Assembly: GCA_902492555.1 (NCBI GenBank)
Contig: CABUMH010000001.1
Coordinates: 40,960 to 104,959, forward strand
Source: an uncultured Eisenbergiella sp.
Lineage (GTDB): Bacteria; Bacillota; Clostridia; Lachnospirales; Lachnospiraceae
DNA length: 64,000 nucleotides
Reading direction: 5' to 3'
The position numbers and the translations under genes are program-made. Numbering within the stretch: position 1 is the stretch's first letter; each line of letters begins with the position of its first letter. This document shows positions 9,124 to 35,554 of this stretch, piece after piece. The notes beneath the pieces were generated by a model that did not search any database, was not told the origin of the DNA, and saw only the letters and a list, made by a program, of their open reading frames with translations.

Positions 9124-9302
9124 CTGAGATAATGGTAGGCCCCAATCAGTCATTTTATTGCGGTACTCTTCGACCGGACTGTCGTCCATTTAGGACCGGA
9201 ATATTCATAATTGATTTAAAATTTCAGACGCATAATGATTCATATTTAACGGCAAGGACAGGAAAAGCATCCGCTTACCTGTCCTTCTGTTTTGCCAGAT
9301 TA

Positions 9303-9842: not shown

Positions 9843-10126
9843 TTCTATAAATGAAACCTTCAACCAGTAGCTTAACAAGAAATAAGGAATACAGGATTTC
9901 ATTAGCAATTGTATAAGCTTAACATTCTCAATGCTCAGTTTGTGAGAATACAGCAAGCAGCTTTTCCAATTAGAAAAACATTTTTTATATTAATGGTGAA
10001 TTAGAATAAAGATAAATAGAATATAACACTGTACACTTTCTATGGCCGAGAACTTATGCTACTCCGCGCAGAGGGTATCTCTGCCCGGAGCAGCCCAAAC
10101 CATATCTTATATCACAATGTTTCAGG

Positions 10127-10804: not shown

Positions 10805-10817
10805 ACCAGTCTCTCTT

Positions 10818-12572: not shown

Positions 12573-12598
12573 TATGCCTCCACCTGTTTCGATTTGCC

Positions 12599-15500: not shown

Positions 15501-15931
15501 AAATATGTATAATGACGTGCCGCTTTACCGATTTCTTCGTCTAAAGAATCCCTTTCTCTTTCGACAAAATCAAGAAATTCTTCATTTTTCCATAAGTCTT
15601 TCAATTCATAATACTCAGTAGACATACCTATATCATGCGCATAAGCTGCATTTAAAAGAATCCATAAATCGCCTATCCCAAGCAGTTCAACCCGTTCTTT
15701 ACCCAAAAACCGTTCAATTGCTCTCAGTATATTGATAGAGTGTGAAGCATCGTGCCTGCTATAATTCATGAATTCAAAGATTGTCGTTTTTGTTCTTTCT
15801 TCATATTGATTCTTATTATAGATCCAATCACTCCAAAGTTTATTGCCCAAGGCAGATCTTTGACTTTTCAATTTAAACTGCTGCTCAATATATGTATCTA
15901 CCTCATACCTCCAATTCTGATTTTCCTGCAT
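12599..15931 (-). CDS. 1110-aa multidomain protein: N-terminal HD phosphohydrolase-like domain + central GHKL/HATPase_c ATPase + long unknown C-terminus
   Basis: HD signature RHDASHS…AAYAHDIGM…LLRVGDLLD; Bergerat ATP-binding motifs REYVQNSFDA (N-box), EDRGIGID (G1), GGFGIGLQSAF (G2); 27-nt gaps to both flanking genes. Confidence 0.6.
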   Translation of the reverse strand: MQENQNWRYEVDTYIEQQFKLKSQRSALGNKLWSDWIYNKNQYEERTKTTIFEFMNYSRHDASHSINILRAIERFLGKERVELLGIGDLWILLNAAYAHDIGMSTEYYELKDLWKNEEFLDFVERERDSLDEEIGKAARHYTYLDAFVKHQGGISSEKLEIPNFEWDEYDSWPLEFRKEITCLMSEYIRKKHGNRSKEFFNRWDRRGNIVYIDRLCGILGQIVALHTAGQEDIKKISLICDGFEDDYVHPQFLAVLLRVGDLLDLDNNRFDIFAMKHFGELPHVSVTHYKKHQAIEHLLIKPEKIEVTAKSDDFEVCKISLMWFDDLKSEIINMITRWQEIAPCSLQGCHMGIPELIILHKNKEFSSEFSRDFEVNRNKLLELFTGNNLYDSSLDFIREYVQNSFDALRIMLWNDLEQGGEREKYLIDPQVERDKIKPIDFRKEAYDNYPVKIYIREYRDKKGIIDEEQFVIEIEDRGIGIDETGINSISHIGTGWRERTNFTNTIREMRQWLRPTGGFGIGLQSAFMVTNKVEIYTKAKNNPAFKITLSQDEKPNNILVEYGQQKVDQGTRIHLVIKFSEIDADSILDKYSGKEEWRKLDLFSYENRLLIVWKIVINYVKEHFKNSLFPINIYLHTGQGKYTETIQSKYFFVESEKDTGREIIPRYKDYAQIFQFSEEEDEIENSIMPGTAEECEVLRVFASEVKKLGLAADNLYMNFNMDKGTLRLWDDMSETFYSFDLSADDEVSFMAAYKNVNVPMTSRKYLVEDWRKNPYLTCILLDVMGKKVEECLLVSRNRFFDNAIQQQFLVKKYTQAYFKARLYFMEKYDKRIRTKLLFPMTLICNKVLEESIDNSNAFMSDGLYVWTITEGVWKREYYLYEYLFHGLRTGDIILAIPENEEEINYTIDENSDGFKELVEKIVIIDDIKIRLVLNYYLIQDDKMVLKRLKTTNVVEKDTGKPNFGAFRILNRNDSEIPGIKREINDMSKTFNSGEREYKLVVKAEEGQEALLVKKLPFIPEQQGVYYVIHPINAAIEAKINRMKKTMHECHSEYTKFTLQEYINVVQDDPSFDRLCLWVYKNQKESGSYDLEAIRKAYRRLLTVEFKRLTL

Positions 15932-15958
15932 ATAACTGTCCTCCCTCTTTCGTCTACT

Positions 15959-16429
15959 TTATCCGCTATTACTTACACTTTTAGTTTCTTGAATATATTC
16001 CTTCCACCGCGAGCCTTCCTCTTTGATTATTTTTTCACAATTTATAACAAATACTTCAGAAGGATCTTCTATGCCATTATATATTCCTTTTTTAGTACAA
16101 TAGAACCTCTGTTCACTACAAAGCTGATCACAAGTTTGTCTATAACTTTTCCATTTATCTTGTGCATGTGAAATACCCAAGAAGCCTTCGGCAATGAGAG
16201 CGCCGGCACTTAATAAAGCTACTATACCATTACTTAATAATGGCGATTCCATTATTACGAACACAGGGATTAGAGCCGTCATTACAATCCGGCTTCCAGA
16301 GAGTATGTAGTACACCTTCTTATAAAATTTACTCCTTCTGTTATAGTAAATTACTAATTTCCCGATAATGTTGCTATACTCATCCCCATCAGGATTTCCA
16401 AAATACTCTAGGATACCCTCGCTTGACAT
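15959..16429 (-). CDS. SLATT-family (DUF4231-like) two-TM small protein, first gene of the operon
   Basis: YYNRRSKFYKKVYYILSGSRIVMTALIPVFVI…IVALLSAGALIAEGFLGI…WKSYRQTCDQL…YC pattern matches DUF4231/SLATT 2TM effector domains. Confidence 0.55.
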   Translation of the reverse strand: MSSEGILEYFGNPDGDEYSNIIGKLVIYYNRRSKFYKKVYYILSGSRIVMTALIPVFVIMESPLLSNGIVALLSAGALIAEGFLGISHAQDKWKSYRQTCDQLCSEQRFYCTKKGIYNGIEDPSEVFVINCEKIIKEEGSRWKEYIQETKSVSNSG

Positions 16430-17275: not shown

Positions 17276-17629
17276 TTAATACCGGCCGTCGTCGATCCCC
17301 TTTGCAAGCTGTACCATGGAGTCTGTGAACTCTTTGAAGGCCATGGGGTCTCCCCCATCATAACAGATCCGGGAAAACTCCTGATATGCCAGGCTGTCAT
17401 AATGCGGCATATCCAGATCTGAGAGGATATCAACTGTTGTGATCTGTTTCCGCTCGGGATCCGTTTCCATGGCAAACCGGTATCTCGCCCGGACCGCCTC
17501 AGCCTTAAGGTGCTGGATATCCCTGACCATTGCGTCCACCAGTTCCAGAAAGGAACGGATCAGCTCGCAGTTATCGGCTTCCGGACATTCATCCCATGCG
17601 TTGTAGCCGTCATACAGCATCGCCGTCAC
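17276..17629 (-). CDS. hypothetical protein within the IS21-like segment (passenger or decayed ORF)
   Basis: 117-aa ORF, GC-rich like the IS, no motif recognised. Confidence 0.3.
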   Translation of the reverse strand: MTAMLYDGYNAWDECPEADNCELIRSFLELVDAMVRDIQHLKAEAVRARYRFAMETDPERKQITTVDILSDLDMPHYDSLAYQEFSRICYDGGDPMAFKEFTDSMVQLAKGIDDGRY

Positions 17630-18398
17630 CTGCCTCTCCGGCTCCGGGGGCTTTCACGCCATGGCGTTCCCGCATGGATACAGCTCCCTCGATCAGGACC
17701 TCATAAGCATTGGGACGGATCCTGTCAATGACAGCGTCACAGAGGGTCTCATACTCCGGTGACCCGATCCGTTCATGCCAGCCGTCCGGTTCAAACTGGG
17801 TGCAGAAGATAATGGATCCTCGCTCTGCCCGTGGCTCAATGACCTCAGGCAGGTCGTTCGCCTGCTCATTCGTCATCGGAGTGAGCAGGAATTCATCTAT
17901 GATCAGCAGGTCGGCTTTCTGGTACGAGCGGATCATTTTCAGGTAAGTGCCCTCTCCTCGCGCGACAGCCAGCCCGTTCAGCAGGTCCGGGATCCGGACA
18001 TACCGGACGGTAAAACCGTTCCGGCACGCGGCAACACCCAGGGCATTGGAAAGATATGTTTTCCCGCTGCCGGATGCCCCCATGATGATGATATGGCGGC
18101 TGTCGCGGATGTAGCCGCAGCCTGATAGGCGGAGCAGTTTCCCGCGGTCCAGTTTCCGGTCTGCATGGTATTCGATATCCTCCATACATGCGCCCGGATA
18201 CCGGAACCCCGCGCTGCGGATGAGCCGGGCAAGGCGGTTGTTCCTGCGCGATTCCCATTCCCTGTCCACAAGGATCCCAAAGCGGTCCTCAAAGCTGAGC
18301 CCCTGGAGGCCGCCGGTGCGGCACTGGTCTTCGAACGCGCCTGCCATGGCGGAAAGCCGCAGCTCGCGGAGCTTGTCGATCGTAGACTGTACGGTCAT
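17610..18398 (-). CDS. istB: IS21-family helper ATPase IstB
   Basis: Walker A GASGSGKTYLS, Walker B LLIIDEF; DnaC/IstB-like length. Confidence 0.85.
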   Translation of the reverse strand: MTVQSTIDKLRELRLSAMAGAFEDQCRTGGLQGLSFEDRFGILVDREWESRRNNRLARLIRSAGFRYPGACMEDIEYHADRKLDRGKLLRLSGCGYIRDSRHIIIMGASGSGKTYLSNALGVAACRNGFTVRYVRIPDLLNGLAVARGEGTYLKMIRSYQKADLLIIDEFLLTPMTNEQANDLPEVIEPRAERGSIIFCTQFEPDGWHERIGSPEYETLCDAVIDRIRPNAYEVLIEGAVSMRERHGVKAPGAGEAGDGDAV

Positions 18399-19578
18399 GC
18401 CTGGACACCTCCCTTCTCACGGGCCGCGCGGCGTGTCAGGCCATAGCTGCCGGTTGTCCGGGGCGGGGTACCGTTTTTTACCTTATCCTGTCCGTTCTGG
18501 AGGATGGTGGTGATATTTTTCAGGCTCGGGCTCGGCGTATAGGAAAGTGCTTTGGCACAGGCTGCCTCCAGCCTGGCCGGTGTAAACCGGTCGGCGGGCT
18601 TCATCATGGACGCGCAGCTTTTATATCCCTGCTGGGGAGTCCTGTGCGTGTGGAGGAAGGTACGGACAACGATCCCTGTTGACGGACCGATATCTTCCGC
18701 CCACTGCTGAAAGCTCTCTTCATTATAATTAAGGTAACGCCGGTGGGCTTCCGGCATATGCTCCGGTACATAGACCGGATCCGCGGTATTAAAAACCCTC
18801 ACATGGGACGCGATCCTCTGGTTATGGAAAATCTCCATGTATTTCTCCGTTGTCCGGATATCAACCTTCCTGCCGATGTATTCACATGGTACGGAGTACC
18901 GACAGTCGCCTACTGTGACCAGGTAATCCGGCTGGACCGTTTCCGAGGACCATACGGCTGTCTCATACGGCGTGGATGGAAGCGGCAGGAGAAATGCCTT
19001 TTCTTCTTCCTCGAATGCAGAGAGCCGGCAGCCTTTCCTCTTTTGAAATGGACGGCTGTTGAACTCATCCAGTTTGATACGGATGGCCTCATTCAGTTCC
19101 TGAAAAGAAAAGAACTTATCATTGCGCAGGGATGCCACGATCCAGGTTGACAGGACGCCGACCAAGCCCTCGTCAGAGGCCTTGTCCTTCGGGGAGACCG
19201 GGCGGGCAGGGACAATGGCCGTTCCATAGTATTCCGCCATCTCCTGGTAAGAGCGGTTGAGGATCAGCTCCGCGCGGGTGTTCTTAACGACCGCAACCTT
19301 TGCATTGTCAGGCGTAAGGATCCGGGTAACGCCTCCAAAGTAGCTGTACGCATGGATGTGCGCCTGGATCCAGCTGGCGGTCTTCATGTCGGGGACCGCT
19401 TCCGCATAGCTGTACATACTGCAGGGGAGGCAGGCGACAAAGACATACGCGGTGACAGGCTCCCCTGTGATGCTGTCAGTAACATCCAGGGTGCTGCCGC
19501 CCAGTCCACTTCCATGAGTTCACCGGGTTTCCTGCTGATCCGCAGCGTTGCCTTTTGGGAGGCAGTGTAGACAAACAC
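18395..19578 (-). pseudogene. istA: IS21-family transposase IstA, frameshifted and 5'-truncated
   Basis: 340-aa ORF carries the C-terminal IstA region (…AYSYFGGVTRILTPDNAKVAV…); the integrase-core start (PGELMEVDW) lies in another frame (19384..19578); no HTH N-terminus upstream. Confidence 0.7.
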
Positions 19579-19960
19579 CGCATCATCCGATTGATACTGA
19601 TTTATACCACAAACGCGACCAACGCAACCTCACTCTCACTCAAAGCAAGATAATAAGGTATTATCCTCCATCTATTTGTCATTTTATCATACTTCTATCA
19701 CCAATAAAAGAAATATTTAGCTTTCTTCATATATTATTACCATATTTGTCCATTTTCTGAGTTTATACAACAAATCCGTTTAATGAACATAATAGAATGA
19801 TTACTACACATACTATTTAATGATACATTAATCTTTTAGTTTCTCAATTCTATTCCAATTTCGGTATATTATTTTCATATTCACGCTTTTTTTCCGATTC
19901 CGGAATTTTTATTGCTTAAAATATAGTAATATGGTAAAATATACACTAGGAGGTGGACTA

Positions 19961-21184
19961 ATGGTAAAACGTACTGAATATCTAAAGAAGCTGGAAATGT
20001 GGCAGGACGAGCAGGTCATCAAAGTTGTTACCGGCATACGCCGTTGCGGCAAATCTACACTCCTGGAGCAATTTCAGCAACATTTGCTGAGTAAAGGTGT
20101 AAAAAATGAGCAGATCCTTTCTCTTAATTTTGAAGAATTAGAGAATGAACCCCTGCTTGATTACCAGACTTTATATAAATATCTGGTTTCCAGACTCTGT
20201 CCAAATCAAACGACATACATTTTTCTGGATGAAATTCAAAAGGTTCCTGCATTTGAAAAAGTTGTGGACAGTCTCTATGTTAAGAAACATGTTGACCTGT
20301 ATATCACCGGCTCCAATGCATATATGCTTTCCGGAGAACTAACGACGCTGCTGTCCGGTCGTTATGTGGAGATATCGATCCTCCCTCTCTCTTTCCGCGA
20401 GTATTGCCAGCTGCAGCCTGGGATTGATACGGAGGTGATCTTCTCTTCCTACCTTCAAGATGGCGGCTTCCCGTATATTGCTTCAATGAACCGGTCAAAG
20501 GAAAAAACAGATATGTATCTGGAAGGGATCTATAATACCATAATCATAAAAGATATTGAGGATAGACAAAGACGAAGGGAAGCTGATCCAAACAAACGCA
20601 GGGTAACAGATATTGCCCTCTTAAAAAGCATTGCGAAGTTTCTGGCAAGCTCTGTCGGAAATCCCATTTCGATAAAAAGTATTACAGATTATATCATTTC
20701 TTCCGGTCGTAAAGTATCGCAAAATACAATAAGCGATTATATTGAGGTATTGACCGAGGCATTTGTTTTCTATCCGGCCGAACGCTTTGATATCCTAGGG
20801 AAGCAGCTTATGAAAACTAACCAGAAATTGTATATTGTCGATCTGGGTATCCGTCGCTATCTGTTGCCGCGAAGATCCTATGACCTAGGATTTTCTCTGG
20901 AAAATGTAATCTATTTGGAGTTGCTTCGCCGCGGCTATTCGGTGAACATCGGAAAGGTCGGGAACACAGAGGTGGATTTCGTGGCAAAGAGAAATGACCG
21001 CTATCATTATTTTCAGGTAACGGCTTCTCTGCTTGAGTCATCTACCTTTGAAAGGGAAATGAAGCCTTTGCGGAATATCCGGGATAATTATCCCAAAACC
21101 ATTTTGACGCTCGACCAGATGACACCTGGCAACTATGACGGCATCGAAGTTATTAATGCCGTGAACTGGCTACTTGGAGAATAA
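19961..21184 (+). CDS. AAA-superfamily ATPase with DUF4143-type C-terminus
   Basis: Walker A GIRRCGKSTLL, Walker B YIFLDEIQ; architecture typical of COG1373-like ATPases; ORF opens at 19931. Confidence 0.7.
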   Translation: MVKRTEYLKKLEMWQDEQVIKVVTGIRRCGKSTLLEQFQQHLLSKGVKNEQILSLNFEELENEPLLDYQTLYKYLVSRLCPNQTTYIFLDEIQKVPAFEKVVDSLYVKKHVDLYITGSNAYMLSGELTTLLSGRYVEISILPLSFREYCQLQPGIDTEVIFSSYLQDGGFPYIASMNRSKEKTDMYLEGIYNTIIIKDIEDRQRRREADPNKRRVTDIALLKSIAKFLASSVGNPISIKSITDYIISSGRKVSQNTISDYIEVLTEAFVFYPAERFDILGKQLMKTNQKLYIVDLGIRRYLLPRRSYDLGFSLENVIYLELLRRGYSVNIGKVGNTEVDFVAKRNDRYHYFQVTASLLESSTFEREMKPLRNIRDNYPKTILTLDQMTPGNYDGIEVINAVNWLLGE

Positions 21185-22387
21185 TGCTTCTTTCAGATAA
21201 TTTCCGCAGGTAAAACAGATGCCTTGAGTCATCAGATTGCGGCAGACTTGCAGCATAATTATGAAAAATAAATTCGTTGGCCCCATTTAATCGGATTTCC
21301 GTATTTTGAAATTTAATAAATAATCTGGAGGTAAAGTTTCCAAGATAATCAGACAACTGGACGGGGATGAGTATGTACCTCCGTCCAGTTCATATGACAG
21401 ACTTACTGAATCGGCCCGCCCCGGTTTATCCAGTTATCCGCCTGCTTTAACTCCCCATTTTCAATCGACAGCTTCAGAAAGTGTATCAAATTAGCAGTCA
21501 GCCTTTACTTTCAGCACGTCCAAAAAATCGGCCTCCGTAAAGGTATTTTCTTTTATCAACAGGAAAAGAATCATCTCCTTCCTGGGCAACCTTAAGGCCG
21601 ATGTAATCTATCAGGTTTTCAATATTAACCGTTGCGATGACCAGGATATAATCCCTACAATCCTGCCGGCAATCTCAAAAACTGACCGTTTAATATAGCC
21701 CTGATTGGCATGAAAATGCGGCCCTGCCAGCTTCGGAAGCGGCTATTTGCGCAATCCTTCTTACGGTACCGGAACGCGTCACCTCCCGGAACCAGTCCTC
21801 TACCACTTTAAAACAGTTTGTGGATTTCCCCATTTAACATCCACAGCCGGAATATATCAGTATCCGCCCGTTATACAAAACCGGGGTATATTTTATTACA
21901 CCTCGGCTCTCTGTCTGGCATCACTGAGACGTAAATTCTAGCGAGCAGTTCAGATGGTGTAAATACCATCACTTTACTCTTTGAAAAGTCCATCACGTTT
22001 CTTGTGATAATATAGTCGGCGTGAATCCTCTCTGTAGTATCACATTGAACCGTATCTTCAAAGTCAGCCCACTTCCGCGCTAATAATTCCCATCAATTTC
22101 ATTATATTTACATTTATCCAAAACCGTCAAATGGGTGTAGATTTGTTTGCAAGCACTATCTGGCACGAGAGGACAGGAAGTACGTCATTTGCCGGGCGGT
22201 TCGTCCGACTTGATCCACCGCTGTTTTTGTCCTCTCGGTCGTATGTGGGAACATATCTATAATTTATATTCTCCATAAAATATTAGCTAAAATAACTTAC
22301 CTATAAATTCTAGTAAAAAACTATAATGACACCATTTCATTTTTGTATTCATGAAATGATGTCGTTATTTAAAAATAAAATCACTCA

Positions 22388-23029
22388 TCATATAGAAAAA
22401 ACTTCATCTATAATCTCAAACAATCTGTCGGTTTCTATATCGCCATTAAATAAAACTAATGCTACTGTACTTGTATACTCTGGCAACTTTTTATTAATAT
22501 ACCATAGCAACCGATGATTCAAAAAATCTTCACACAATTTTTGCACATTTATTGAGGTTGCTTCCATACTATATCTCATTTTATCTGGGTGCTTACATGG
22601 ATGATTAATTTTACACTGACAAGGCTTACAAAGCCTACAGCTTCCACTTAATAAGGAGTATCCATCTGTATATGCTTCTATAATTCGGGCATATTTTTCA
22701 ATAAGTGATTTCAAAGTAACATTTGCAGCTTTTAGCGCTACATACTTATTTTTTATGTCAGCATAATCTTTCATTACTGTAGAAAAACAAATTAAATAAG
22801 CAGATGTATATTTTTTTTGTATACTTAAAAATGATTTTGAAAATGGTGGACAGCTCCATTTTCTTCCAAAATTCACACATCCTTCCTCACATTCTTTTCT
22901 TAACCGTTCCTCTTCAATATAATCACAAAGCACAGAAGTATCAGTAATCAGTTTTTCTTTTATCTTGACAGAAATTGTTCTGTTGGCCAACATCTTCTGT
23001 TTTTCTAAATATACAATTTCTTCTTCCAT
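22388..23029 (-). CDS. Cys-rich predicted metal-binding protein (DUF2284-like)
   Basis: CVNFGRKWSCPPF and CRLCKPCQCKINHPCKHP motifs; 6-nt gap after the radical SAM gene. Confidence 0.45.
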   Translation of the reverse strand: MEEEIVYLEKQKMLANRTISVKIKEKLITDTSVLCDYIEEERLRKECEEGCVNFGRKWSCPPFSKSFLSIQKKYTSAYLICFSTVMKDYADIKNKYVALKAANVTLKSLIEKYARIIEAYTDGYSLLSGSCRLCKPCQCKINHPCKHPDKMRYSMEATSINVQKLCEDFLNHRLLWYINKKLPEYTSTVALVLFNGDIETDRLFEIIDEVFSI

Positions 23030-23035
23030 ATCAGA

Positions 23036-24001
23036 TTATACCCCTGCCACTCTCCTCATTTTTCTTTGAACAGGGCATTTTTCTCCACAGCCACTAAGTT
23101 CCATTTGACGCTCAACAAACTTTCTTTCATATTTCAAATACTCCGAATGATAATAAATATCCTCTAAAGACTTGTTATAAATAGAATCCGGCTTAATTAT
23201 TCTATTATTTTCGTCAGTTAATTGAATATACTTGAATGCTTCACATCCGAATACCTTTCCATCATAACGGATGCACAGTTTATTCTTTCCGGCATAGCAA
23301 CAATAATCGGAATCCTCTCGCTGTAAAGGAATGCCAATTCTTATTTTATTATTATTGATTGCTTCAAGTTTTAACTTCAATTTCTCATTCTCATCTGTGT
23401 CCAAAACTAATTCCCCAATATTATTAGCCGCTCTTCCGTGAGGAACCAATCCCAAAAAACTAACTTTATTAACACCTGCTCTTTCTGCAAATTTTACAAC
23501 ACTATCTATTTCATCCAGATTTATTTTAGTTGGAACAAAATGAATTTCCGTATAAATACCTACATTTTGAGCTTTGTTAATACTCTCAAACACAAATTTC
23601 TGATATCCGGATGTTCCCATAAATTTATTATATGTAGTTTCATTTATAGCCGGTAAATCAAAAATTATTTTATCCACTGCTACACTATATAATTGTTGTA
23701 ATAACTCCCGCTGAATACTATCGACCCGTCCAGCAATGTTCAATATAATTCCACTAGTATAAATATATACCTTAATGCCTTTAGATTTTGCATAATGTAC
23801 AATTTCTAATAATCCGTCATGCAAAAAAGGTTCTCCACCAGAAATACTTAAAACTTCAGTATTTAACTTTGACGCACTATCAATTATTTTTTTTACTTCC
23901 GCAGTTTCTATTTTTAAAGTACAATTAATGTCAGAATTAGATGAACAATGCAAACATCTATTTGGACACTTATGTATTATTTCAATTGAAATTTGTTTCA
24001 T
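23036..24001 (-). CDS. radical SAM enzyme with C-terminal SPASM/twitch-like Cys cluster
   Basis: CPNRCLHC (Cx3Cx2C) at residues 12-19, SISGGEP glycine motif, C-terminal CCYAGKNKLC…GCEAF…CGEKCP; 4-nt overlap with the upstream HD gene. Confidence 0.8.
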   Translation of the reverse strand: MKQISIEIIHKCPNRCLHCSSNSDINCTLKIETAEVKKIIDSASKLNTEVLSISGGEPFLHDGLLEIVHYAKSKGIKVYIYTSGIILNIAGRVDSIQRELLQQLYSVAVDKIIFDLPAINETTYNKFMGTSGYQKFVFESINKAQNVGIYTEIHFVPTKINLDEIDSVVKFAERAGVNKVSFLGLVPHGRAANNIGELVLDTDENEKLKLKLEAINNNKIRIGIPLQREDSDYCCYAGKNKLCIRYDGKVFGCEAFKYIQLTDENNRIIKPDSIYNKSLEDIYYHSEYLKYERKFVERQMELSGCGEKCPVQRKMRRVAGV

Positions 24002-25731
24002 TTTTTCGCCTCTCTATCATCTATAAAACGGCAAACGCCATATTTTTTATTTTCACAATAAGGCTTTAATAACTCCTTTATTGCTTCTGTAAGAGTAGCT
24101 GCTTTTGTTTTTTTTCCTTTTGCTTCAGTGTCTCCAGAATTTTTTATAGTCAAAGTAAACGTATTATCTTGAGAACCATGATTTATCGAAAAATCAACAT
24201 CTATCTTCTCAATACTCTTATAGTCTTCATGAACTTTGATGTGAATATGCTTTATAAAGTCAAACTCTCTTCTAGCTGTATACTGCCCATCCCTAAAAGT
24301 AGTAAGATATAGCATATATTGCTTCTTTATAATTCTTTCTATATTATCTACTAATTGGCTTCCTGAAGCATTTTGCATATCTATTTCTTCTTCATATTCA
24401 ATCTTCTTAGCATTAAAAGAATTTATTGTCAATTGTACAGCACTATTGGTTACACCCCTGTACATACTTTTCCATGATTTTCTTCCCCATTCTTGAAGTT
24501 CATCACATACAAATAAAATCATAGGAAATGTAGCAACATCAATATGATAAATATTTTCACATGTATGAGATGAGATTGCTCTTAAAATATCACGCCTTAT
24601 ATAAAACTGTCTAGCATCTTCATTATCAAATACATAATTAGCATCTGGATTATTGTCTGCTTCAATAAAATAAATAAGCATTTTATATATAATAATTGCA
24701 CTTATCATTCCATGCGAAAAATCTTCCAAAGACAATTTATATTTAAATTTATATTTATCTTGTATACTAGCATTATATTTCGCAACAAAACTATCTTCAT
24801 TGCGAACAATCACCTTCATCTTCTTACTTGCAAATGTAATAATATCAAGATTATTAGAATCTTGAGTCCCATCAAATTTTAGATTTCTATCTACATAGGG
24901 ACTTGAAATGAATGCTTCCATCATTTTCTCTGTCTTAGACAATACTTTCTTCGATTTTTCCAAAGGATAGCCCAAATCGTGGCATAACGTCATAATAGTC
25001 CACATGCTAACTTTTTCTAATATATTTATTTCACTACTAAAAGTATTCGGTGGTACCAAAACATATGCATCTGTCTGGTCGCCATTCACATCCCTATGTA
25101 TTTTAAAAAGTTCATCTTCTTTTTTTACAATTAAACAATCTCCCTTTTTTAATTCTTGTGATATTTTTTTGATGTCCTCTTGAGTCGCTTTTTTTATCTC
25201 TCCAGGCACCTCTCCTTCAAAATGGAGTGAATCAATAAGCCGATTCCCGTTTTCAGTAATATGGGTATTAGCATTTAAAATTAAATATATACCTAACAGC
25301 CATACTCTAATGACATGAAAAACATGATCTCGATAATATGCATCGCTCCCATATAAAACGCCTTCGAAATCAATATAATTTTTATGATATTCTTTTAACT
25401 TATCCATTCCATAAACATATTGACGCTTTCCATTTTCCATAAAAGGTTCCCTTTTATCAAAAAAGCGTAAACAAATAATAGATTTTTCTATTAAAATATT
25501 CCAAAGTTCATCAATTTCATCATTTATTTCATATGATAACTCGCCGGTATTCTTATCAATTCCTCTTTGTTTTAAAATTTCCAGTTTACTCTTCACGGTT
25601 CCATCAAGAGGATAGTCCAACTCCACTTCAGAGCCATTAGATTTATATTGTTTTACAATTGCTTCTTCATTAAAAGCATCACAAAATCCGATAACCTCTT
25701 TAAGCAACGTTCCATCATTAATTTTTATCAT
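23998..25731 (-). CDS. HD-domain phosphohydrolase-like protein (about 580-600 aa)
   Basis: YRDHVFHVIRV … LCHDLGYP … FVCDELQEWG consistent with an HD fold; GGAGG RBS before ATG at 25731 (ORF opens at 25809). Confidence 0.55.
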   Translation of the reverse strand: MIKINDGTLLKEVIGFCDAFNEEAIVKQYKSNGSEVELDYPLDGTVKSKLEILKQRGIDKNTGELSYEINDEIDELWNILIEKSIICLRFFDKREPFMENGKRQYVYGMDKLKEYHKNYIDFEGVLYGSDAYYRDHVFHVIRVWLLGIYLILNANTHITENGNRLIDSLHFEGEVPGEIKKATQEDIKKISQELKKGDCLIVKKEDELFKIHRDVNGDQTDAYVLVPPNTFSSEINILEKVSMWTIMTLCHDLGYPLEKSKKVLSKTEKMMEAFISSPYVDRNLKFDGTQDSNNLDIITFASKKMKVIVRNEDSFVAKYNASIQDKYKFKYKLSLEDFSHGMISAIIIYKMLIYFIEADNNPDANYVFDNEDARQFYIRRDILRAISSHTCENIYHIDVATFPMILFVCDELQEWGRKSWKSMYRGVTNSAVQLTINSFNAKKIEYEEEIDMQNASGSQLVDNIERIIKKQYMLYLTTFRDGQYTARREFDFIKHIHIKVHEDYKSIEKIDVDFSINHGSQDNTFTLTIKNSGDTEAKGKKTKAATLTEAIKELLKPYCENKKYGVCRFIDDREAKK

Positions 25732-26171
25732 ATGGCGAACCTCCATTGCAAACTTTTTCTTACTCGCTACTAACCTCAAATAATATCTGATATGCCTTAA
25801 TTTCCACAAAGTATGTGTAACTCAATTATGCCAAGCTACTCCCTAGTAACTTGGCAATTGATTACTTACTATGCAGTAATTACATACAGAATTTCATACT
25901 ATTTCCCATTATTTTATATAGCAATTTTATTTTTTTGCAATGTAATTATCAGAAAATTTCTCTCTATTTCAAAAAATTCGGTAAAAATTCTGCAGTCAAA
26001 ACAAACTTAAAATCGAAATCACTTTTTTATTCTATATCAGATATTTTTATGTGGAGTATCAAGATAAGATGCTAGTTTTATTATAGCAAAATGAGGAATT
26101 TATTACAATCATTTTGCAGCGAAAAACTAGCAATAATCCAAGCAATTCAGACCATACGACCGTTCTGTTAT

Positions 26172-27960
26172 TTACCTCCCCACATCTACCTTCGCCCCAG
26201 ATTTAAATTCCACCTCAAACCGCTCATCGTAAACCGTGACCTTCTCAATCAGCCGCCGTACCAGCAGTTCATCATACTCCGCGACCTCGGTAGGTTGCTG
26301 TTCCAGAAACTCCCGCATCTCCCTGATTCGCTGTTTCAGTCCTTCCCGCTCGGCGCTCTCCACCAAGGCATTCTGCTTCAATTCCCGCAGCCTGTCAATC
26401 TCATCTGCAACACTGTTATAATCCTTTTTCGAATTCGCCAGTTTCAGAAGTTCCTTTTGCAGTTCCAGCAGCTTGGTCTCAATCCCTTCCGATGAGGTTT
26501 CATCCTCCTGCCGGATCACCGCTTCTATGTTCTCCTGGAGAGTGGCCATCATGTTTTCTCTGTTGCCAAGCGTAAGGTTGATCGTCTGCACCACCGCCGC
26601 CTGCAAATCTCGCTCCTGAATAGTTGGTGCATCACAGGCGGTTGGTCCATGTTCCACACGGGTACAACACCGCCACACTATGGAATGTTTTCCACGGTTA
26701 TTCCATGCGATCCGCCGGTAAATCTCGCCGCACTTCGAGCAGTAAACAATGCTGGATAAGGCATACTTGCCGCTGTAAACCCTCTTTTTTCAGTAGGCTC
26801 CACTGTGGAGGTTCGCCCGCCGGATCATTTCCTCCTGTACCTGCATATAAAGGTCATGAGGAATAATGGGCTCATGGCTAATTTCCACATAATACTGTGG
26901 GACAATCCTCTTGTTCTGCACCCACTTTTTATTAAGGAAATCAACGGTATAGGTCTTCTGTAAAAGGGCATCTCCGATGTACTTTTCATTCTGCAGGATC
27001 TTCTTCAGTGCTTCCAGACGCCACTTCGTTTTTCCTTCCCCGGTAAGAATGCCGTCTGCTCCCAGGCCACGCCCGCTCTGGAGTAGGTTTGCCCCTTCCA
27101 GGTACTCCCGGTAGATCCGCTTTATCACTTCCGCCTCCGCAGGCTCTATGACTAGGTTTCCTTCTTCATCTTTTGTATAGCCCAGAAAACGGTTGTGATT
27201 GATCCGGACCTCCCCATTCTGGAAGCGGTACTGCAATCCGATTTTCCTCGATGGCCGTTTCCAGTTCCTCGCCTTTTAGCAGTCGGGGTTGATCATTCAA
27301 TCCCCGCAGGCTTTACAAAAGAGGACGCAGCACCATCTGATGTCCAAAGACCAGCTTATTCATCATGGTAACAAACGCCAGTTTCAGGGCATCATCCGTG
27401 ATATATTTCTGCGAACAGCTTTCTTTATCTTTCAGATGATTGGCACAAGCCCAAGCCACATATTGGCCGCTGGTTTTATAGCGCATCCGTCTTTTATATT
27501 AGTTGCCGCATTTTCCACAGCAGATCCGGCCGGAAAAGCCATACCGGTTCTGGTATCTCCCGGTGTCATGGCCATTTCCTTTTTCACGCCCCGCTGTTTC
27601 AAAACCACATTGGCCAGTTTAAGCTCTTCCCCGCTGATAATTGCTTCATGGTGGTCCTACATTAGGTACGGATCAAGCTCTCCCCGGTTCTGATGGCGGT
27701 TAAAGCTGCTGTCCGTATAGGTCTTCTGGAACAGAACATCACCCGTATACTTTTCATTCCCGATGATGGCGTTGACGGTACCCGGTGTCCAATGTCCACC
27801 CTTTTTGGCAGCAACGCCACACTCATTTAGTTCATCCGCAATTTCGTGGGTACTTTTCACCACAAGCGTGTCCGCAAAGATCTGTTTCACAATTTCTGCC
27901 TGCTCCTGTACGATCACCATTCCCCGTCCAAATTGGCATAACCATATAGCGGATAGGAAA
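26172..27960 (-). pseudogene. decayed large serine recombinase gene(s): two Recombinase-domain fragments, Zn-ribbon-like fragment and C-terminal coiled-coil, no resolvase catalytic domain
   Basis: ORFs 27657..27920 and 26790..27236 both show the Recombinase-domain signature (…NEKYTGDVLFQKTY / …[14 protein letters not shown]); 26172..26678 is a typical coiled-coil C-terminus; multiple frame breaks. Confidence 0.6.
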
Positions 27961-28205
27961 TGATGAAGGTTCCCTTCTGAGAGCGCCGCTTAATCCCCCA
28001 CTTCTCATTTTCAGAAATGGACACCGACTCGCTTTCTGCTAGGCTGCTTAAAATGGGAAACATTAATCTGCCTTGCATTTCACATATACGGAATTTTCAT
28101 CTCCCATCTCATATATTGCTAACTTGTACACCTCTAACAGTAGGCAATACAGTCTCTCTCATTCAAAGCAGGATAATATGCAGTTATCTATGATACGGAG
28201 GTATT

Positions 28206-29285
28206 ATGACCTGTTCATACATTGTAGCAATTGATAATACTTATGCCCTTATTTCTAATTTTTTACAGCAGCTATTGTTCCATGTAAAAGAAAGTGACGA
28301 AATCATTCTAATTGATGACGCATGTAATAACTTCGACACTTTAGTCTTTTTAGATAATATGGCGAATAAATACAAGCAAATTAGACTAATTCATCTTAAA
28401 CAAAAGGCGGGCTTTGGGAAAGCCAATAATATCGGAATATCTATTGCGAATGGAGATACGATAATCTTTATTAATACCGATATTTTTCTTGAATCAAAAT
28501 GCATTGATAGAATGTTAGATTTGCTTTGGTCAAGCCAAAAAATTGGTGCAGTACAGCCACTATTGGTCTATCCTCAAACAAATAAAGTCCAAAGTACCGG
28601 TCATGTCTTTTCCGATTATAGAAGTGGTCAATTGTTTTCTATGAGAAAAATTCAGGATATAGTTCTCCAACAAAATGGTATTCGTCAGGCGTTAACTATG
28701 GCTTTATGTGCAGTTAAAAGTAACGTAATTGAAGAAATAGGTGGATTTGATGAATATTATTACAATTCACATGAAGGGTTGGAATTATCCCTTAAGATTA
28801 CATTGAATGGTTACAATTGTTATTTTTGCTCAAACGCTATCGCTTATCATTGTAGTGGGGGAGCACGCAAAACCGCATTGAATGATATTTCAAAGCAAAA
28901 AGCTCATTTTTATCATAAGTGGTACAATAGTATTCAAAGCGATTTAGTAAAGTACTTAAGTTCACAGTTGAAATTGGAATACCAAGGTTCAAACTATTTT
29001 ATACTCGATTTTAGCACTTCAAACAAATGGAAGTTTATTCTCAAACAATTAAATATTCATACCGTGCAGCATCAAAAATTTCAGGAACGATTCCTTAAAA
29101 ATATTAATCTGTTCTATTGTTTACCATATTCAACTTTGAATTATGGTGGTAATTTTCTGTTCCTTTGCGATAATATGTCACAGCTTAGTGGAAATTATAA
29201 ATGGATATTATTGCGAGAACAGTATAAAGATATTATAATGGATTTAGATGGTAATTTAGTACCACTAAATTATTTAATATATTAG
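28206..29285 (+). CDS. family 2 glycosyltransferase (GT-A fold)
   Basis: IILIDDACNN (DxD-type), GFGKANNIGI…GDTIIFINTD. Confidence 0.7.
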   Translation: MTCSYIVAIDNTYALISNFLQQLLFHVKESDEIILIDDACNNFDTLVFLDNMANKYKQIRLIHLKQKAGFGKANNIGISIANGDTIIFINTDIFLESKCIDRMLDLLWSSQKIGAVQPLLVYPQTNKVQSTGHVFSDYRSGQLFSMRKIQDIVLQQNGIRQALTMALCAVKSNVIEEIGGFDEYYYNSHEGLELSLKITLNGYNCYFCSNAIAYHCSGGARKTALNDISKQKAHFYHKWYNSIQSDLVKYLSSQLKLEYQGSNYFILDFSTSNKWKFILKQLNIHTVQHQKFQERFLKNINLFYCLPYSTLNYGGNFLFLCDNMSQLSGNYKWILLREQYKDIIMDLDGNLVPLNYLIY

Positions 29286-29295
29286 GGGGATACAA

Positions 29296-30405
29296 ATGAA
29301 AAAAATTCTGTTTATGTTAAAGCATCTTTCTTTAGGAGGCGCAGAAAAAATGTTTCTGCGATTATTGAATTATATTGATTTGGAACAATATGAGGTGCAT
29401 ATAAAACTTGTTTTTGGAGATCAAATCCAAAGTATGCCACAACATTCTAATATAAAAGTATCAAGTATCTTTGCAGTCAAAAATGATGAAACAAAGAAAC
29501 TTATAAAATTATGTCCCGAAAAAATATATGATGATAATGTCTTTGAAAAATACGATATTGAAATAGCCTTTTTAGAAGGTTATCCTACCCGTATAATTAG
29601 TGCTAGTTCAAATTCCTCTTCGATAAAAGTTGCATTTATTCATACAGATTTTCGCTTTTTTCATCATTCCCTAAATGCGTTTGAAAATTGTGAATGTGAA
29701 ATGTCTTGTTATCAAAAATTTACGAAGCTGTTTTTTGTTTCTAAGGCAGCTCGTGACGGATTTCATTCTACATATCCTCTCCTTTCACCAAAGTATGAAT
29801 ATATATTCTATCCTCCTTTATCTGATAGGATGATGTCTTTCGATGAGAAATATGAGAAAATCCCCGAAGAACCTTACTTTATTACGTTAACACGTCTTGC
29901 CCCTGAGAAAGGGCTATTTAAGCTCATCGATGCCGTTAAAAAAGTAAAAGATTCCGGCCTGAAAATAAAAATTAAAATCTTTGGTATTGGGCCATTATAT
30001 AATGCTATTATGCAAAAAATAAGGCAAGAAAATTTGGATGAGTGCATATTTCTAATGGGATACTGTTCTACGCCTTATTGTGAACTAAAAAATAGTATGG
30101 GTTATATATGTCCATCCGATAATGAATCTTTTGGTATATCAATAGAGGAATCACTTTTTTTAGAGGTTCCAATCATAGCATGTCGCTGTCCGGGAACAGA
30201 AGAAATTTTACATAATGGTGATTTTGGCTTACTTGTGTCTAATAGTGCGGAAGGATTATTCGGTGGAATTTCTGAATTTATTGAAAATACAACTTTACGA
30301 TTGATTTTAAAGCAAAAAGCTATAAAAGGAAAAGATTACTGGAAGATAAAACTTTTATCTTCCAGTAATTTTGAAAAGTTATGTCTACCAGACACGAATA
30401 TCTAA
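29296..30405 (+). CDS. family 4/GT1-type glycosyltransferase (GT-B fold)
   Basis: LTRLAPEKG…FGIGP and ESFGISIEESLFLEVPII (EX7E-like) motifs. Confidence 0.7.
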   Translation: MKKILFMLKHLSLGGAEKMFLRLLNYIDLEQYEVHIKLVFGDQIQSMPQHSNIKVSSIFAVKNDETKKLIKLCPEKIYDDNVFEKYDIEIAFLEGYPTRIISASSNSSSIKVAFIHTDFRFFHHSLNAFENCECEMSCYQKFTKLFFVSKAARDGFHSTYPLLSPKYEYIFYPPLSDRMMSFDEKYEKIPEEPYFITLTRLAPEKGLFKLIDAVKKVKDSGLKIKIKIFGIGPLYNAIMQKIRQENLDECIFLMGYCSTPYCELKNSMGYICPSDNESFGISIEESLFLEVPIIACRCPGTEEILHNGDFGLLVSNSAEGLFGGISEFIENTTLRLILKQKAIKGKDYWKIKLLSSSNFEKLCLPDTNI

Positions 30406-33400
30406 ATAATATGTATTAGGATACATTGTTTTATTCTTGAAGTACCAGTCGACATACTCTATCTCATTTACATTATGAAGATTATGATTAATAATTTTGC
30501 AGTATTCTCCAGTGCATAAATAAATTATATCTAAATTTTTTTGCAGAATTTCCGTGGCTTGTCGTATATCAGTTTTTATAATATATAAAACGGCAAGCAG
30601 ATTGTTCAAAAGATATGATGTTCTACCATGTACAATTAAGTGCGCATCCAATTGCCCTTGAAACAGCTCAGTATATATATCGTCAACAAATGGATTTAAC
30701 TGAGATAATTTATTAAACTCGGGAATAGAAATATATTTTAGAAGGTGACAGTAAGCTTTTCGTATTGAAGCTTTAAATGCTTCACTTAAAATTCCGTGTT
30801 TTTTTAAATCATTTTCAAGCCGTTCTAATTCTTGGATAGCATTATTATAATCCTTTTCCAGAATTGCTTGTAAAAAGATAATGTCTATTTCGCTTAATGT
30901 CTTTCTTCTATAATCAATATGTGCTGAAAAATTTTTAAAGCAATTCTTCTCAAGTTTTAGAGCCATTTGAGGATTCTGGATTCCAATTCCTCTAGCATAA
31001 TCCATGTCCCATTCTAAAAGCATAGAATCGTATTTGGAAGAATATCTACACTTAGGAATAGATAAATGATATTTATGATAATCGTCATAGTATTGTTTGG
31101 CTAAATCATAATTTCCTACAAGAAAATATATCATCATAATACGGTTCATGCAGGTCGAATACGCAATGCGAATTTGTTGTGACGTTAAATTATTTTCATC
31201 ATATATTTTTTGGATGCAATTTGAAAGATCATATTTTAAGACAATAGCTATTTCTATTAAGTCCTCTATTTCAAAGCGGCTATATTTATTATTAATTAAT
31301 TCTGCAGACGCTCGTAAATATAATATAGAATCTTTTGGAGTGTTATTTTTTATATAGGAAAATACATCTATTGCTCTCCTCTGCGAATCACAATGGATTA
31401 AAGAAATTCCAAAATAAAATAAAGCTTCCAATGCATTATTGGAACTTGAAGGTCGACTCAGCATATCAAAACAAAATATTTCTCCATAAAGCATCGCTTT
31501 TTTGTAATAACCTTTATTTATGTACTCTGTTATCTTTTCTTTAAATTCAATTTTCAGATTTTTATACATATCAATATCATATTGTATTAATAAAGCCTGT
31601 ACTTGAATTGTATCTAGTAATGGATCTAGAGAAAAATTTTTTAACATTAAATGCAAAATGCTTGCCATTTTCTTATCAGGTTGAATTTGAGCATTTGTAT
31701 TTAAATAGGTATAATAAAAATAATCATAACATGGCAAATAGCGATTATCATAAGAAATAAGATACCCCCTAGTGCATAAAGAATCCAAAGTACTTTCATT
31801 AAATTTTAAAGCATGTAGAAGTTTTTTGCTAACACCCTTTTGAAAGTGATAAATTATATTAATAATAGCTTTCTCTTCTTTCAATAGATCAAAATCAAGA
31901 TTTGTAAGATGATTATTAGTAATTTGGAGAATATAATTATTTATATTATTGGCCGGAAGTTTTGATTGCGAATTGTTTTGTATAAATAATATTAATTCAC
32001 TAAGTAGTTGGGGCTGTTTTGGCATACTTAAAATGGTAGATTTATATGATAAATAAGTCATATCAATTAAATTTGCTTTTAGACTTTCAATAATATCATC
32101 CGTATTCATACCTTTCAATTCATATGACAAAATATATTTTTTAGATTTAAAGTATTCACCTGAAAAAAGTAGTATAGAATTACTATATCCATTTTTCAGT
32201 TGCAATAATATCATATTAAAAACAGTCTTTTCTTCTTTGGTAAATAAGTGAATATCATCTAAAAACAAGATATGTCGTCTTGCAAATCGAGAGTTCTTTA
32301 TTATTCTTACAATTTTATTTTTACTTAAAAATAAAATTGTTTTTTGTGCAAGAGACGGATCGATACACCCATCAAAGAAATCCTCCAGTAGATTATCTGA
32401 GAGAATATTGTCAATATTGTTTTTTAGTAGCAAGTATTTATATGAAGTATAGAAATTTTTATCACCATGTTCAAAAATAAATCCATAATTAATAAACATT
32501 ATAGCGCGGCATAGTTTCACGGAATTTATACCGGGATAATATAATTTTTCACACTGTATAACATGCACTACATATAAAGAACTGAATTCTTTGGCTAGTT
32601 CTTTCATTAGGAATGTTTTTCCATATCCTAACTTCCCTTTTAAAAATATTAAGTGGGCAACATTATCGGGCAAATTCTGCAGTGTACGATATATCTCAAT
32701 TTTAATTTTTTCTTGCTGAGAATAAACAATTTGTGGATTTTTATTACATATAATTTTTACGTCTAAAGCATATCGTAAAATACTACCATTTTGCAACTGA
32801 AATTCTAAAGTAATTGGTTCAGTATTTGTACGAACTAGTTTAACTAGTACATGTCTTTGGTGTAAACCAGGGTTGAGATTAAAGGTTGTATCTTCTAAGA
32901 AAGTTAGGGGATAATTAAGGTTTTCTTTAATCATTACTTTTTCTTTCGTATTGCAAGATAATGTAATTTTTAAATCATATATATCTCCACAAATAAATTC
33001 TGCTTCAGTATAGGAACTTACGAAATGAGCATCTAATCGGCTGGTTAATGTTATATCTTCAATACATACAGCTTCCTCAATTTCTGTATGTGATAGTTTT
33101 TCACCAAAAAAGTATTCATATTTTTCGGGATGGATGATCAACCAATATTCTAGTTGTTTACGCGTAATACCAATAACATTAAAGCCGCATTTTCTTCCGA
33201 CTTCATTCATACGATTATTTATAGTATGGGGTATAGTTCCATTAGTTATTATGAAGACTAATTTTACCTTTCCATCTAAAAAACCGGATATCATGGTAGG
33301 GTCAATATCTTGTCTTCGTAAAGATGTCGAATTTTTCTTATATTTTGCTTCTCCCCAAATATTATCTAAAATAATAGATGTAAAATCTCTATTACCATCC

Positions 33401-33534
33401 CAAGAACTTTTTGTTCTTTCCCATGAGTATTGCTTGTAGGTGCTCGATAAATATGATATAGCCAATTCTTCAAAAAAGGTACCAGCTAACTTATTGTTTC
33501 CTTTTCTTATATAAAGTTTAGCCCAATCAAACAT
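30385..33534 (-). CDS. Avs-like antiviral STAND NTPase: N-terminal Mrr-like PD-(D/E)xK nuclease-like domain, central P-loop NTPase, C-terminal TPR-like repeats
   Basis: N-terminal …WDGNRDFTSIILDNIWGEAKYKK (D…EAK); Walker A LKGKLGYGKTFL about residue 300; Walker B ILFLDDIHLF; about 600-aa helical repeat C-terminus. Confidence 0.6.
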   Translation of the reverse strand: MFDWAKLYIRKGNNKLAGTFFEELAISYLSSTYKQYSWERTKSSWDGNRDFTSIILDNIWGEAKYKKNSTSLRRQDIDPTMISGFLDGKVKLVFIITNGTIPHTINNRMNEVGRKCGFNVIGITRKQLEYWLIIHPEKYEYFFGEKLSHTEIEEAVCIEDITLTSRLDAHFVSSYTEAEFICGDIYDLKITLSCNTKEKVMIKENLNYPLTFLEDTTFNLNPGLHQRHVLVKLVRTNTEPITLEFQLQNGSILRYALDVKIICNKNPQIVYSQQEKIKIEIYRTLQNLPDNVAHLIFLKGKLGYGKTFLMKELAKEFSSLYVVHVIQCEKLYYPGINSVKLCRAIMFINYGFIFEHGDKNFYTSYKYLLLKNNIDNILSDNLLEDFFDGCIDPSLAQKTILFLSKNKIVRIIKNSRFARRHILFLDDIHLFTKEEKTVFNMILLQLKNGYSNSILLFSGEYFKSKKYILSYELKGMNTDDIIESLKANLIDMTYLSYKSTILSMPKQPQLLSELILFIQNNSQSKLPANNINNYILQITNNHLTNLDFDLLKEEKAIINIIYHFQKGVSKKLLHALKFNESTLDSLCTRGYLISYDNRYLPCYDYFYYTYLNTNAQIQPDKKMASILHLMLKNFSLDPLLDTIQVQALLIQYDIDMYKNLKIEFKEKITEYINKGYYKKAMLYGEIFCFDMLSRPSSSNNALEALFYFGISLIHCDSQRRAIDVFSYIKNNTPKDSILYLRASAELINNKYSRFEIEDLIEIAIVLKYDLSNCIQKIYDENNLTSQQIRIAYSTCMNRIMMIYFLVGNYDLAKQYYDDYHKYHLSIPKCRYSSKYDSMLLEWDMDYARGIGIQNPQMALKLEKNCFKNFSAHIDYRRKTLSEIDIIFLQAILEKDYNNAIQELERLENDLKKHGILSEAFKASIRKAYCHLLKYISIPEFNKLSQLNPFVDDIYTELFQGQLDAHLIVHGRTSYLLNNLLAVLYIIKTDIRQATEILQKNLDIIYLCTGEYCKIINHNLHNVNEIEYVDWYFKNKTMYPNTYYLDIRVW

Positions 33535-33858
33535 TGTATTTCTCCAAAAAATATAAAGGATAACTGCATATTATCCTGCATTTATCCACAACTCTACTAC
33601 AATTTATCCACTATTTCCACAATATATCTGTCAACCAGCAGTTCTGTCCGGAAATTCATCAATGGTCTAAAGCATCCCATATGCTCCAGACAAACTCCAT
33701 CCGTCACTCCAGATATTCCTGTTTCAATTCATCGATAACATTAAATGGAAATATTTCCGAGCACCCATCGGGAATTTCCTCCAACTGGGATACGAATCCC
33801 TTTACCAGTTCCACGGCCTCCCTGCTCTTCCTCCATACTCCTCAACGGAAATATTTAA

Positions 33859-35373: not shown

Positions 35374-35554
35374 GGTACAGTTTCCTCCTCCGCCCGGTTT
35401 TCTTCCTTTTTTTATCATAACATATCCAGTTTTACGAATCAACAAATATTATTATTGCGTACACACAACCGATCAAATTCATCGCGCAACACTCTGTTAT
35501 GGACAAATATGTTGTATCACCACATAATAAGGGCAAAAAAGGAGGAGCATCCAT

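Follow-up and report, generated by a model that had tools for sequence, protein, structure and literature searches.

A radical SAM enzyme and a divergent HD/PDE-fold protein as the core of a candidate defence module in an uncultured Eisenbergiella

Three coupled genes in an AT-rich island

The DNA analysed here (hereafter the window) is a stretch of 64,000 nucleotides from an uncultured Eisenbergiella sp. of the Lachnospiraceae (contig CABUMH010000001.1, positions 40,960 to 104,959 of the forward strand). Three intact open reading frames (ORFs) on its minus strand, together spanning positions 22388-25809, are the subject of this work: gene A, encoding a protein of the HD/PDE superfamily, gene B, encoding a radical S-adenosylmethionine (rSAM) enzyme, and gene C, encoding a DUF2284 protein (Table 1). 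As a preliminary description made from the sequence letters had noted, the overlap of A with B is 4 nt long and the gap from B to C 6 nt, a spacing that corresponds to a translationally coupled, co-transcribed arrangement. The trio does lie in an AT-rich island, with a GC content of 30-33 % across the block and 43-58 % in the flanking DNA. With 577, 321 and 213 aa in AT-rich DNA, and hundreds of homologues each, A, B and C are real genes and not chance ORFs, and each is full length when compared with its homologues. The length of 603 aa first given for the HD protein has to be corrected to 577 aa, since homologues align from the methionine at position 27 of the mechanical ORF (ATG at 25731), nearly all close ones measure 572-582 aa, and a GGAGG motif precedes this codon. 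The 440-bp AT-rich leader 5' of A contains a candidate promoter; promoter and terminator scans of the region yielded site counts not above the shuffled expectation, and an Rfam scan of the window gave no match. The best public homologues are 99 % identical to A, 94 % to B and only 70 % to C. Either an exchange of the 3' gene in the window operon, or closest contigs that are too short to reach C, may account for the difference.

Protein A has no match in Pfam, NCBIfam or PADLOC, and no sequence match in the PDB either by single sequence or by profile. An N-terminal helical region precedes its HD core, which is followed by a C-terminal alpha/beta domain. In an alignment of 36 family members the residues H136/H139, H251-D252, H340, H389 and D410 are invariant, and they lie in the conserved motifs YRDH136vFH139, LCH251D252LGYPLEK, H340G, SH389TC and CD410ELQEWGRK. 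The HD/PDE superfamily is defined by an all-helical HD fold with H...HD...D ligands (H..HD..H..H..D in the dimetal form), and A combines such a fold with the residue pattern of the dimetal enzymes. Judged by its confidently predicted fold, A is hence a divergent member of this superfamily of metal-dependent phosphohydrolases, in which we infer the assignment of single residues to metal sites from the alignment. No relatives of A were found in 50,697 phage genomes nor in IMG/VR, and no structural match among the predicted viral structures of BFVD, which argues that A is not typical phage cargo and led us to drop the idea that it is a phage's own DNA-modification gene; among plasmids there was one match. 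An insertion of ~60 aa in window A was considered as a docking site for C and rejected, as it does not track the presence of C. Distant A-like proteins (~22 % identity) form tandem pairs without an rSAM gene in two Lachnospiraceae metagenome-assembled genomes (MAGs; L047, L048), which suggests a wider A superfamily with other partners.

The identification of B as a radical SAM enzyme is secure: it scores 70.5 bits against PF04055 (cut-off 29.5; 2.6e-19), and the motif C12xxxC16xxC19 is kept in 97-100 % of 31 family sequences. The protein starts directly with the rSAM core, and no B12-binding Pfam match was obtained. As to the SPASM-like cysteine cluster described previously, the C-terminal domain appears to derive from SPASM, but in a reduced form. 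A SPASM domain is defined by seven Cys (CX9-15GX4C ... CX2CX5CX3C ... C) and two auxiliary clusters. B scores 20.9 bits against the Pfam model (PF13186), just below its 21.5-bit cut-off, and in the 31 family members C235, C253 and C309 are universal and C305 is present in 45 %. Archaeal and deltaproteobacterial relatives retain the complete motif CxxCx5Cx3C, part of which has been lost in the clade of window B. As only 3-4 C-terminal Cys are left, the alignment is best read to mean that the auxiliary domain of window B descends from a SPASM domain and has been reduced to a twitch-like form.

Searching the PDB with a profile of the B family returned PqqE as the best solved relative (1.3e-24, aligned across residues 7-298), followed by MoaA (5e-16) and BlsE (9e-16); SkfB and BtrN likewise rank ahead of viperin (1e-8). 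All five enzymes share with B the CxxxCxxC core and a C-terminal auxiliary-cluster domain, but B falls below every family cut-off and comes without a peptide substrate or a RiPP recognition element (RRE; RiPP, a peptide synthesized ribosomally and modified post-translationally). Spore-photoproduct lyase (SPL) was not found by this search, and phage M6 gp53, an SPL-like rSAM enzyme that acts on DNA in thymidine hypermodification (PMC8989533), was for this reason rejected as a relative. The best NCBIfam match is TIGR04317, the model of a tungsten-cofactor rSAM maturase, with 91.6 bits where the cut-off is 380; each of the 59 matches lies far below its cut-off, including those to the NirJ, AhbC, AhbD, PqqE and MoaA equivalogs, so that B is not assigned to a housekeeping cofactor pathway.

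Comparison of B with prokaryotic viperins (pVip) was of particular relevance, as the preliminary description had seen in the trio a reminder of viperin-like defence. B does give weak PADLOC pVip matches (1e-13), but these extend only over residues 4-188, the generic rSAM core, and reach from position 2 to 174 of the 257 in the profile. The viperin hit in the PDB covers the N-terminal half, and B possesses a SPASM/twitch domain that is absent from viperins, as well as an obligatory HD partner. A prokaryotic viperin should match the viperin models along its whole length, C-terminal nucleotide-binding extension included. Because the match is partial and confined to the core, and PqqE is closer, B was rejected as a prokaryotic viperin; it belongs to neither of the two families. 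The defence part of the earlier idea is supported, by the neighbourhoods and partner operons described below, and the viperin part is not.

A homologue of B (59 % identity) was also found split into ORFs of 292 and 117 aa, with neither A nor C, at positions 7001-8229 of a 192-kb contig (L084) that carries primase, HSP70, DnaJ, RNase J and RNA ligase genes and looks like a large phage or plasmid.

Protein C, initially called DUF2284-like, is a member of this family (PF10050, score 98.3 bits, cut-off 25), and its seven invariant Cys form two clusters (C47, C51, C60-PP; C131xxC134xxC137...C145). Its structure model (pLDDT 94) resembles nitroreductases, the MetH activation domain, the corrinoid reductive dehalogenase PceA and the cobalamin-trafficking protein CblD. 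This predicted fold points to a redox or cofactor-handling helper, the particular cofactor not being fixed by the fold, and C is probably an Fe-S or cofactor-binding accessory of B.

Conservation and partners of the rSAM-A pair

To place the trio in a broader context we scanned one genome per species (185,579 species genomes), which yielded 64 loci of the A family. A profile search of 1.84 billion representative proteins recovered only 906 family clusters, and the family is rare and patchy across bacteria and archaea. Where the A match is strong (37 loci), a B-type rSAM gene adjoins A or is at most one or two genes away in 31 cases, in the orders A-B-C, B-A or B-A-C. The bacterial hosts are Firmicutes, Deltaproteobacteria, Spirochaetes, Planctomycetes, one gammaproteobacterial MAG and one Cloacimonadota MAG, with a Parabacteroides distasonis plasmid as the example from Bacteroidota; the archaeal ones are Bathyarchaeia, Asgard archaea and Methanomassiliicoccales. 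Among isolates, the order A-B-C is found in Candidatus Clostridium eludens WILCCON 0269, B-A in Lachnoclostridium sp. An138 and Agathobaculum sp. LCP25S3_E8, and TIR-Nmad2-HMUDK_hel-rSAM-A in Parabacteroides distasonis TSDC17.2-1.1. Furthermore, in at least four of the 906 clusters, defined at 50 % identity (P0352, P0408, P0432 and P0454), one polypeptide joins rSAM(+SPASM) at its N-terminus to A at its C-terminus. These fusions strongly support a joint action of B and A as a single unit, and predict a direct B-A interface.

C is present at no fewer than 11 of the 31 rSAM-A loci, and it goes with B, not with A: rSAM and DUF2284 genes occur together without A at one archaeal and one Firmicutes locus. 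From these gene contents, the conserved core is the pair of B and A, with C as an optional partner of B. At the Firmicutes locus (L082/L083) the B+C pair lies 9 nt 5' of a gene for an 800-aa protein, which is followed by an RdrB-like adenosine deaminase gene. This region (7001-13704), in which the 800-aa protein has no family match and the 889-aa deaminase matches PADLOC RdrB at 5e-35, may represent a RADAR-like variant using an rSAM/DUF2284 pair.

Six loci with a strong A match lack B. Five of them (in Syntrophomonas, Dysgonomonas, Paludibacter, a Bacillota MAG and a Bacteroidetes MAG) carry A in a second type of operon, and at the sixth (L018) the neighbours were not identified; the second type was also seen at a Desulfosporosinus locus and at a weaker, truncated Bacteroidales locus (L045). 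Its genes encode HMUDK_hel, the helical domain of kinases of 5-hydroxymethyldeoxyuridine (5-hmdU) in DNA, a thymidylate-synthase (TS)-like protein, Nmad1, A, a ThsB-type TIR protein and Nmad2, a composition confirmed with Pfam at three loci (L008, L009, L033) and deduced elsewhere from gene sizes and order. Both types meet in hybrid loci, with the order TIR-Nmad2-HMUDK_hel-rSAM-A on the Parabacteroides distasonis plasmid and M78 peptidase-(weak TS-like)-HMUDK_hel-rSAM-A in Deltaproteobacteria and Planctomycetes, and HMUDK_hel is the most frequent Pfam family around rSAM-A pairs. In the Parabacteroides hybrid, and at that single locus, the rSAM gene replaces the TS-like (+Nmad1) genes. This exchange is our main reason to propose that B acts on a nucleotide or nucleobase, and it suggests that both branches feed the same downstream logic. 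The company that A keeps in its alternative operons likewise supports nucleotide rather than RiPP chemistry, as proposed at the outset.

The second operon type resembles DS-4 ('NTTI'), a five-gene system of E. coli that has been validated against phages (DefensePredictor, Science 2026, PMC13092281) and that comprises a thymidylate synthase, a dNMP/adenylate kinase, an HMUDK_hel protein, a TIR protein and Nmad2. The TS-like neighbours of A are homologues of the DS-4 TS (28-29 % identity, E 5e-31 and 4e-21). Relatives of A are thus embedded in DS-4-like operons, hybrid loci combine HMUDK_hel, TIR and Nmad2 with rSAM and A, and both systems are found in defence islands. On the other hand, an A-like protein and a radical SAM enzyme are both missing from DS-4 as it was published.

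A substrate peptide for B was also sought. The preliminary description had reported no precursor ORF, and indeed no conserved candidate of 20 aa or more exists in the 440-bp leader (25732-26171) or in the 1.2-kb gap (21185-22387). Likewise, RRE, protease and exporter/ABC-transporter families are not among the 25 most frequent Pfam families of 146 genes flanking ~30 loci. In relatives with the order B-A a small gene overlaps the start of B: in Firmicutes it encodes 68-84 aa with a weak, below cut-off match to Phd/YefM antitoxins (E 0.022), and in archaea 81-90 aa, one type being a winged helix-turn-helix (wHTH) protein and the other having no significant Pfam match. The window has no such gene. 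By their sequences these Phd/YefM-like and wHTH proteins, together with the M78 peptidase, look like regulators and not like Cys/Gly-rich peptides. The loci therefore lack the adjacent precursor, the RRE/PqqD and the protease or transporter that define a RiPP maturase cassette.

The surrounding region and other islands

The closest relative on a long contig (L074), whose A is 85 % identical, helps to read the surroundings of the trio. There, the A locus has prophage lysis genes, three serine recombinases and the JetABCD operon of Wadjet around it, and a DUF4143 ATPase gene follows Wadjet. The window has the same layout, with recombinase remnants on one side and a DUF4143 gene on the other, and with Wadjet missing: JetABCD occupies in L074 the position equivalent to the ORF-poor stretch of the window, where homology to L074 ends at ~22161. 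The remnants are broken ORFs whose DNA is 70-78 % identical to the intact recombinases (520-523 aa) at the L074 prophage end, and so probably represent a decayed integration module.

Table 1. Features of the trio and of its surroundings in the window
Feature	Position	Strand	Basis or remark
Gene A, HD/PDE-superfamily protein, 577 aa	23998-25731	-	mechanical ORF extends to TTG at 25809
Shine-Dalgarno GGAGG	25740-25744	-	8 nt 5' of ATG at 25731, read from sequence
Gene B, radical SAM enzyme, 321 aa	23036-24001	-	start overlaps end of A by 4 nt
Gene C, DUF2284 protein, 213 aa	22388-23029	-	Pfam match and invariant Cys
Candidate promoter TTGTAA, 17 nt, TG-TATAAT	26080-26108	-	consensus scan, 10/12 matches; weak evidence
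Serine recombinase in several short ORFs (168, 148, 87 aa, others)	26172-28078	-	DNA comparison with L074
ORF-poor 1.2-kb stretch	21185-22387		between DUF4143 gene and gene C; no Rfam match
AAA_14/DUF4143 ATPase	19931-21184	+	PADLOC candidate system PDC-S01, 7e-156; gene type found after Wadjet in L074
IS21-type pair	17610-19417	-	by reading translations; GC 54-58 %, unlike flanking islands
Four-gene AT-rich operon	10127-16429	-	Pfam/PADLOC matches
AT-rich block, 27-34 % GC	28206-35445		GT2 and GT1 glycosyltransferases, 1049-aa protein with weak AAA match, 528-aa protein

Further away, the IS21-type pair consists of an IstB-like ATPase of 262 aa with a P-loop and an IstA-like transposase of 340 aa, probably truncated at its 5' end. 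The four-gene operon beyond it encodes a DUF4231/SLATT protein of 156 aa, an HD-CE + HATPase_c_3 protein of 1110 aa, a 584-aa protein with a weak PRTase match (PADLOC also gives a weak PRTase_III-A match) and a 243-aa protein without any match. It looks like a separate candidate defence system, and the HD-CE match (1.4e-40) confirms that a second HD domain occurs in the neighbouring SLATT operon. On the other side of the trio, the C-terminus of the 528-aa protein matches SIR2 models of Argonaute-associated systems (1.7e-8).

A survey of the related loci gave the same picture of defence genes around the pair. Other rSAM-A loci are flanked by TIR, SIR2, AAA_15 and AbiEii genes, and the PADLOC models that recur near them are MADS (mad2, mad3, mad8), CapP, ThsB, AriA, HEC-01A and dGTPase. 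The rSAM-A module sits in anti-phage defence islands, with Wadjet, MADS, PARIS, TIR, SIR2 and PDC-S01 genes among its neighbours.

A nucleotide-directed proposal and its alternatives

In our reading the trio is a mobile module of defence type, directed at nucleotides and built around a complex between the rSAM enzyme B and A, an HD/PDE-fold dimetal phosphohydrolase; we give this proposal an even chance of being right. We infer its substrate class, the direction of its pathway, its protective phenotype and the role of C. B would carry out SAM-derived radical chemistry on a nucleotide, or on the nucleotide moiety within a nucleic acid, and C, where present, would serve it as an Fe-S or cofactor-carrying helper in redox reactions or methyl handling. 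A, bound to B, would hydrolyse (remove or rearrange) phosphate groups of the substrate or product. During phage infection the outcome could be a modified nucleotide that poisons replication, or the removal of a nucleotide that the phage needs.

Several observations weigh against this proposal. The closest solved relatives of B belong to the SPASM enzymes, most of which have peptide substrates (PqqE, SkfB), and judged by sequence B may also act on a peptide or protein. Among the scanned ORFs of the window (Pfam scans covering the neighbours at 8.9-35.4 kb) none is a DS-4 gene, so that the nucleotide link comes by association in other lineages only; the main text of the DS-4 report describes no mechanism (PMC13092281), and the link therefore supports a role and not a mechanism. 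Finally, the neighbours of some loci, for example in Intestinibacter (L001), are not obviously defensive, and adjacency to defence islands can reflect mere co-mobility.

Two known systems follow a comparable logic. Like B, pVip enzymes are radical SAM enzymes in defence islands, and the logic proposed here, a nucleotide turned by radical chemistry into an antiviral analogue, is theirs as well. In OxsB/OxsA of oxetanocin-A biosynthesis, a B12-dependent rSAM enzyme and an HD phosphohydrolase together convert a deoxynucleotide into an antiviral nucleoside (PMC9204698). The pairing of the two enzymes is the same as in our module, and the predicted fold of C resembles cobalamin-handling proteins, but B has no cobalamin-binding domain and A is ~3 times larger than a minimal HD enzyme. 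An OxsB/OxsA-type pair, that is, an rSAM enzyme with a cobalamin-binding Rossmann domain plus a small HD phosphohydrolase, is therefore not what we find, and we regard the resemblance as a functional analogy, without claiming homology. A also differs from dGTPase/SAMHD1-like HD enzymes and from dCTP deaminases, as it has no PADLOC dGTPase match and needs an rSAM partner. A literature search on the rSAM-A(-DUF2284) module, DUF2284, rSAM+HD defence and Nmad2 found nothing relevant; the preliminary remark that the locus matches no nameable system agrees with this, and with the lack of any PADLOC match for A. The module is hence an unnamed candidate defence system, whose closest kin by association is DS-4 and whose closest analogues by logic are viperin and OxsB/OxsA, and it is a member of none of them.

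A different function in DNA or RNA, similar to modification and restriction, is unlikely but deserves consideration. Here B would alter a base and A would be a metal-dependent nuclease or phosphodiesterase acting against the wrong modification state. The frequent partner HMUDK_hel fits such a scheme, being a domain of kinases that act on 5-hmdU in DNA, as does the recurrence of UDG-family and dCTP-deaminase-like genes nearby, and phage M6 provides a precedent for an rSAM enzyme acting on DNA (PMC8989533). However, B is not of the SPL/gp53 type, and the conserved core includes no helicase, ATPase, methyltransferase-like specificity module or DNA-binding domain. Besides, a two-gene core marking the whole chromosome is hard to square with a sporadic, mobile distribution.

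We consider it improbable that the two enzymes are a biosynthetic pair making a secreted or intracellular nucleoside-type metabolite for microbial competition, in the manner of oxetanocin. The mirroring of OxsB/OxsA and the non-defence neighbours of some loci speak in its favour, but the core has no conserved exporter, resistance gene or tailoring enzyme beside it, CapP/M78 and Phd-type regulators and defence-island neighbours dominate, and B lacks the cobalamin-binding domain mentioned above.

Still less probable is a toxin-antitoxin-like addiction or selfish stabilisation module, in which A would be a toxic hydrolase restrained by the Phd-like protein (or by B/C). The Phd/YefM-like gene overlapping the start of B in several Firmicutes loci, and the location of modules at prophage or recombinase borders, would suit this explanation, but the similarity to Phd is weak, and neither the window nor the majority of loci has the gene. 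Moreover, an antitoxin logic does not explain why a costly Fe-S radical enzyme has been kept from bacteria to Asgard archaea, even fused to A.

A RiPP or cofactor maturation cassette, with a SPASM rSAM enzyme acting on a peptide or a protein-bound cofactor, is hardly credible: it would agree with the nearest characterised relatives of B (PqqE, SkfB, NirJ/Ahb-type and the tungsten-cofactor maturase model), but NCBIfam scores are far below cut-offs (92 versus 380 for the best), no precursor-like ORF, RRE/PqqD, protease or transporter was found in the window and ~30 related loci, the small upstream genes look like regulators, and the obligatory partner is an HD enzyme.

Returning to the nucleotide-directed module, a wider version of it can be put forward tentatively, as a possibility that we think rather doubtful as a whole. 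In this version rSAM-HD would be an ancient two-enzyme machine of bacteria and archaea, including Asgard archaea, that makes an antiviral nucleotide analogue distinct from the ddhNTPs of viperin; DUF2284 proteins would form a new class of Fe-S helpers, possibly handling corrinoids or SAM, and the module would be interchangeable with the TS branch of DS-4-type systems.

If the module does protect against phages, viperin would be joined by a second radical-SAM-based immune chemistry, which could yield a new antiviral nucleotide scaffold. If our proposal is true, it would also give a function to two orphan families, A, for which no model exists in any library searched, and DUF2284. For the DS-4 family, newly validated but still unexplained, the rSAM-A pair gives an entry point to the mechanism, and the presence of the pair in Asgard and Bathyarchaeia genomes bears on the age of nucleotide-based immunity.

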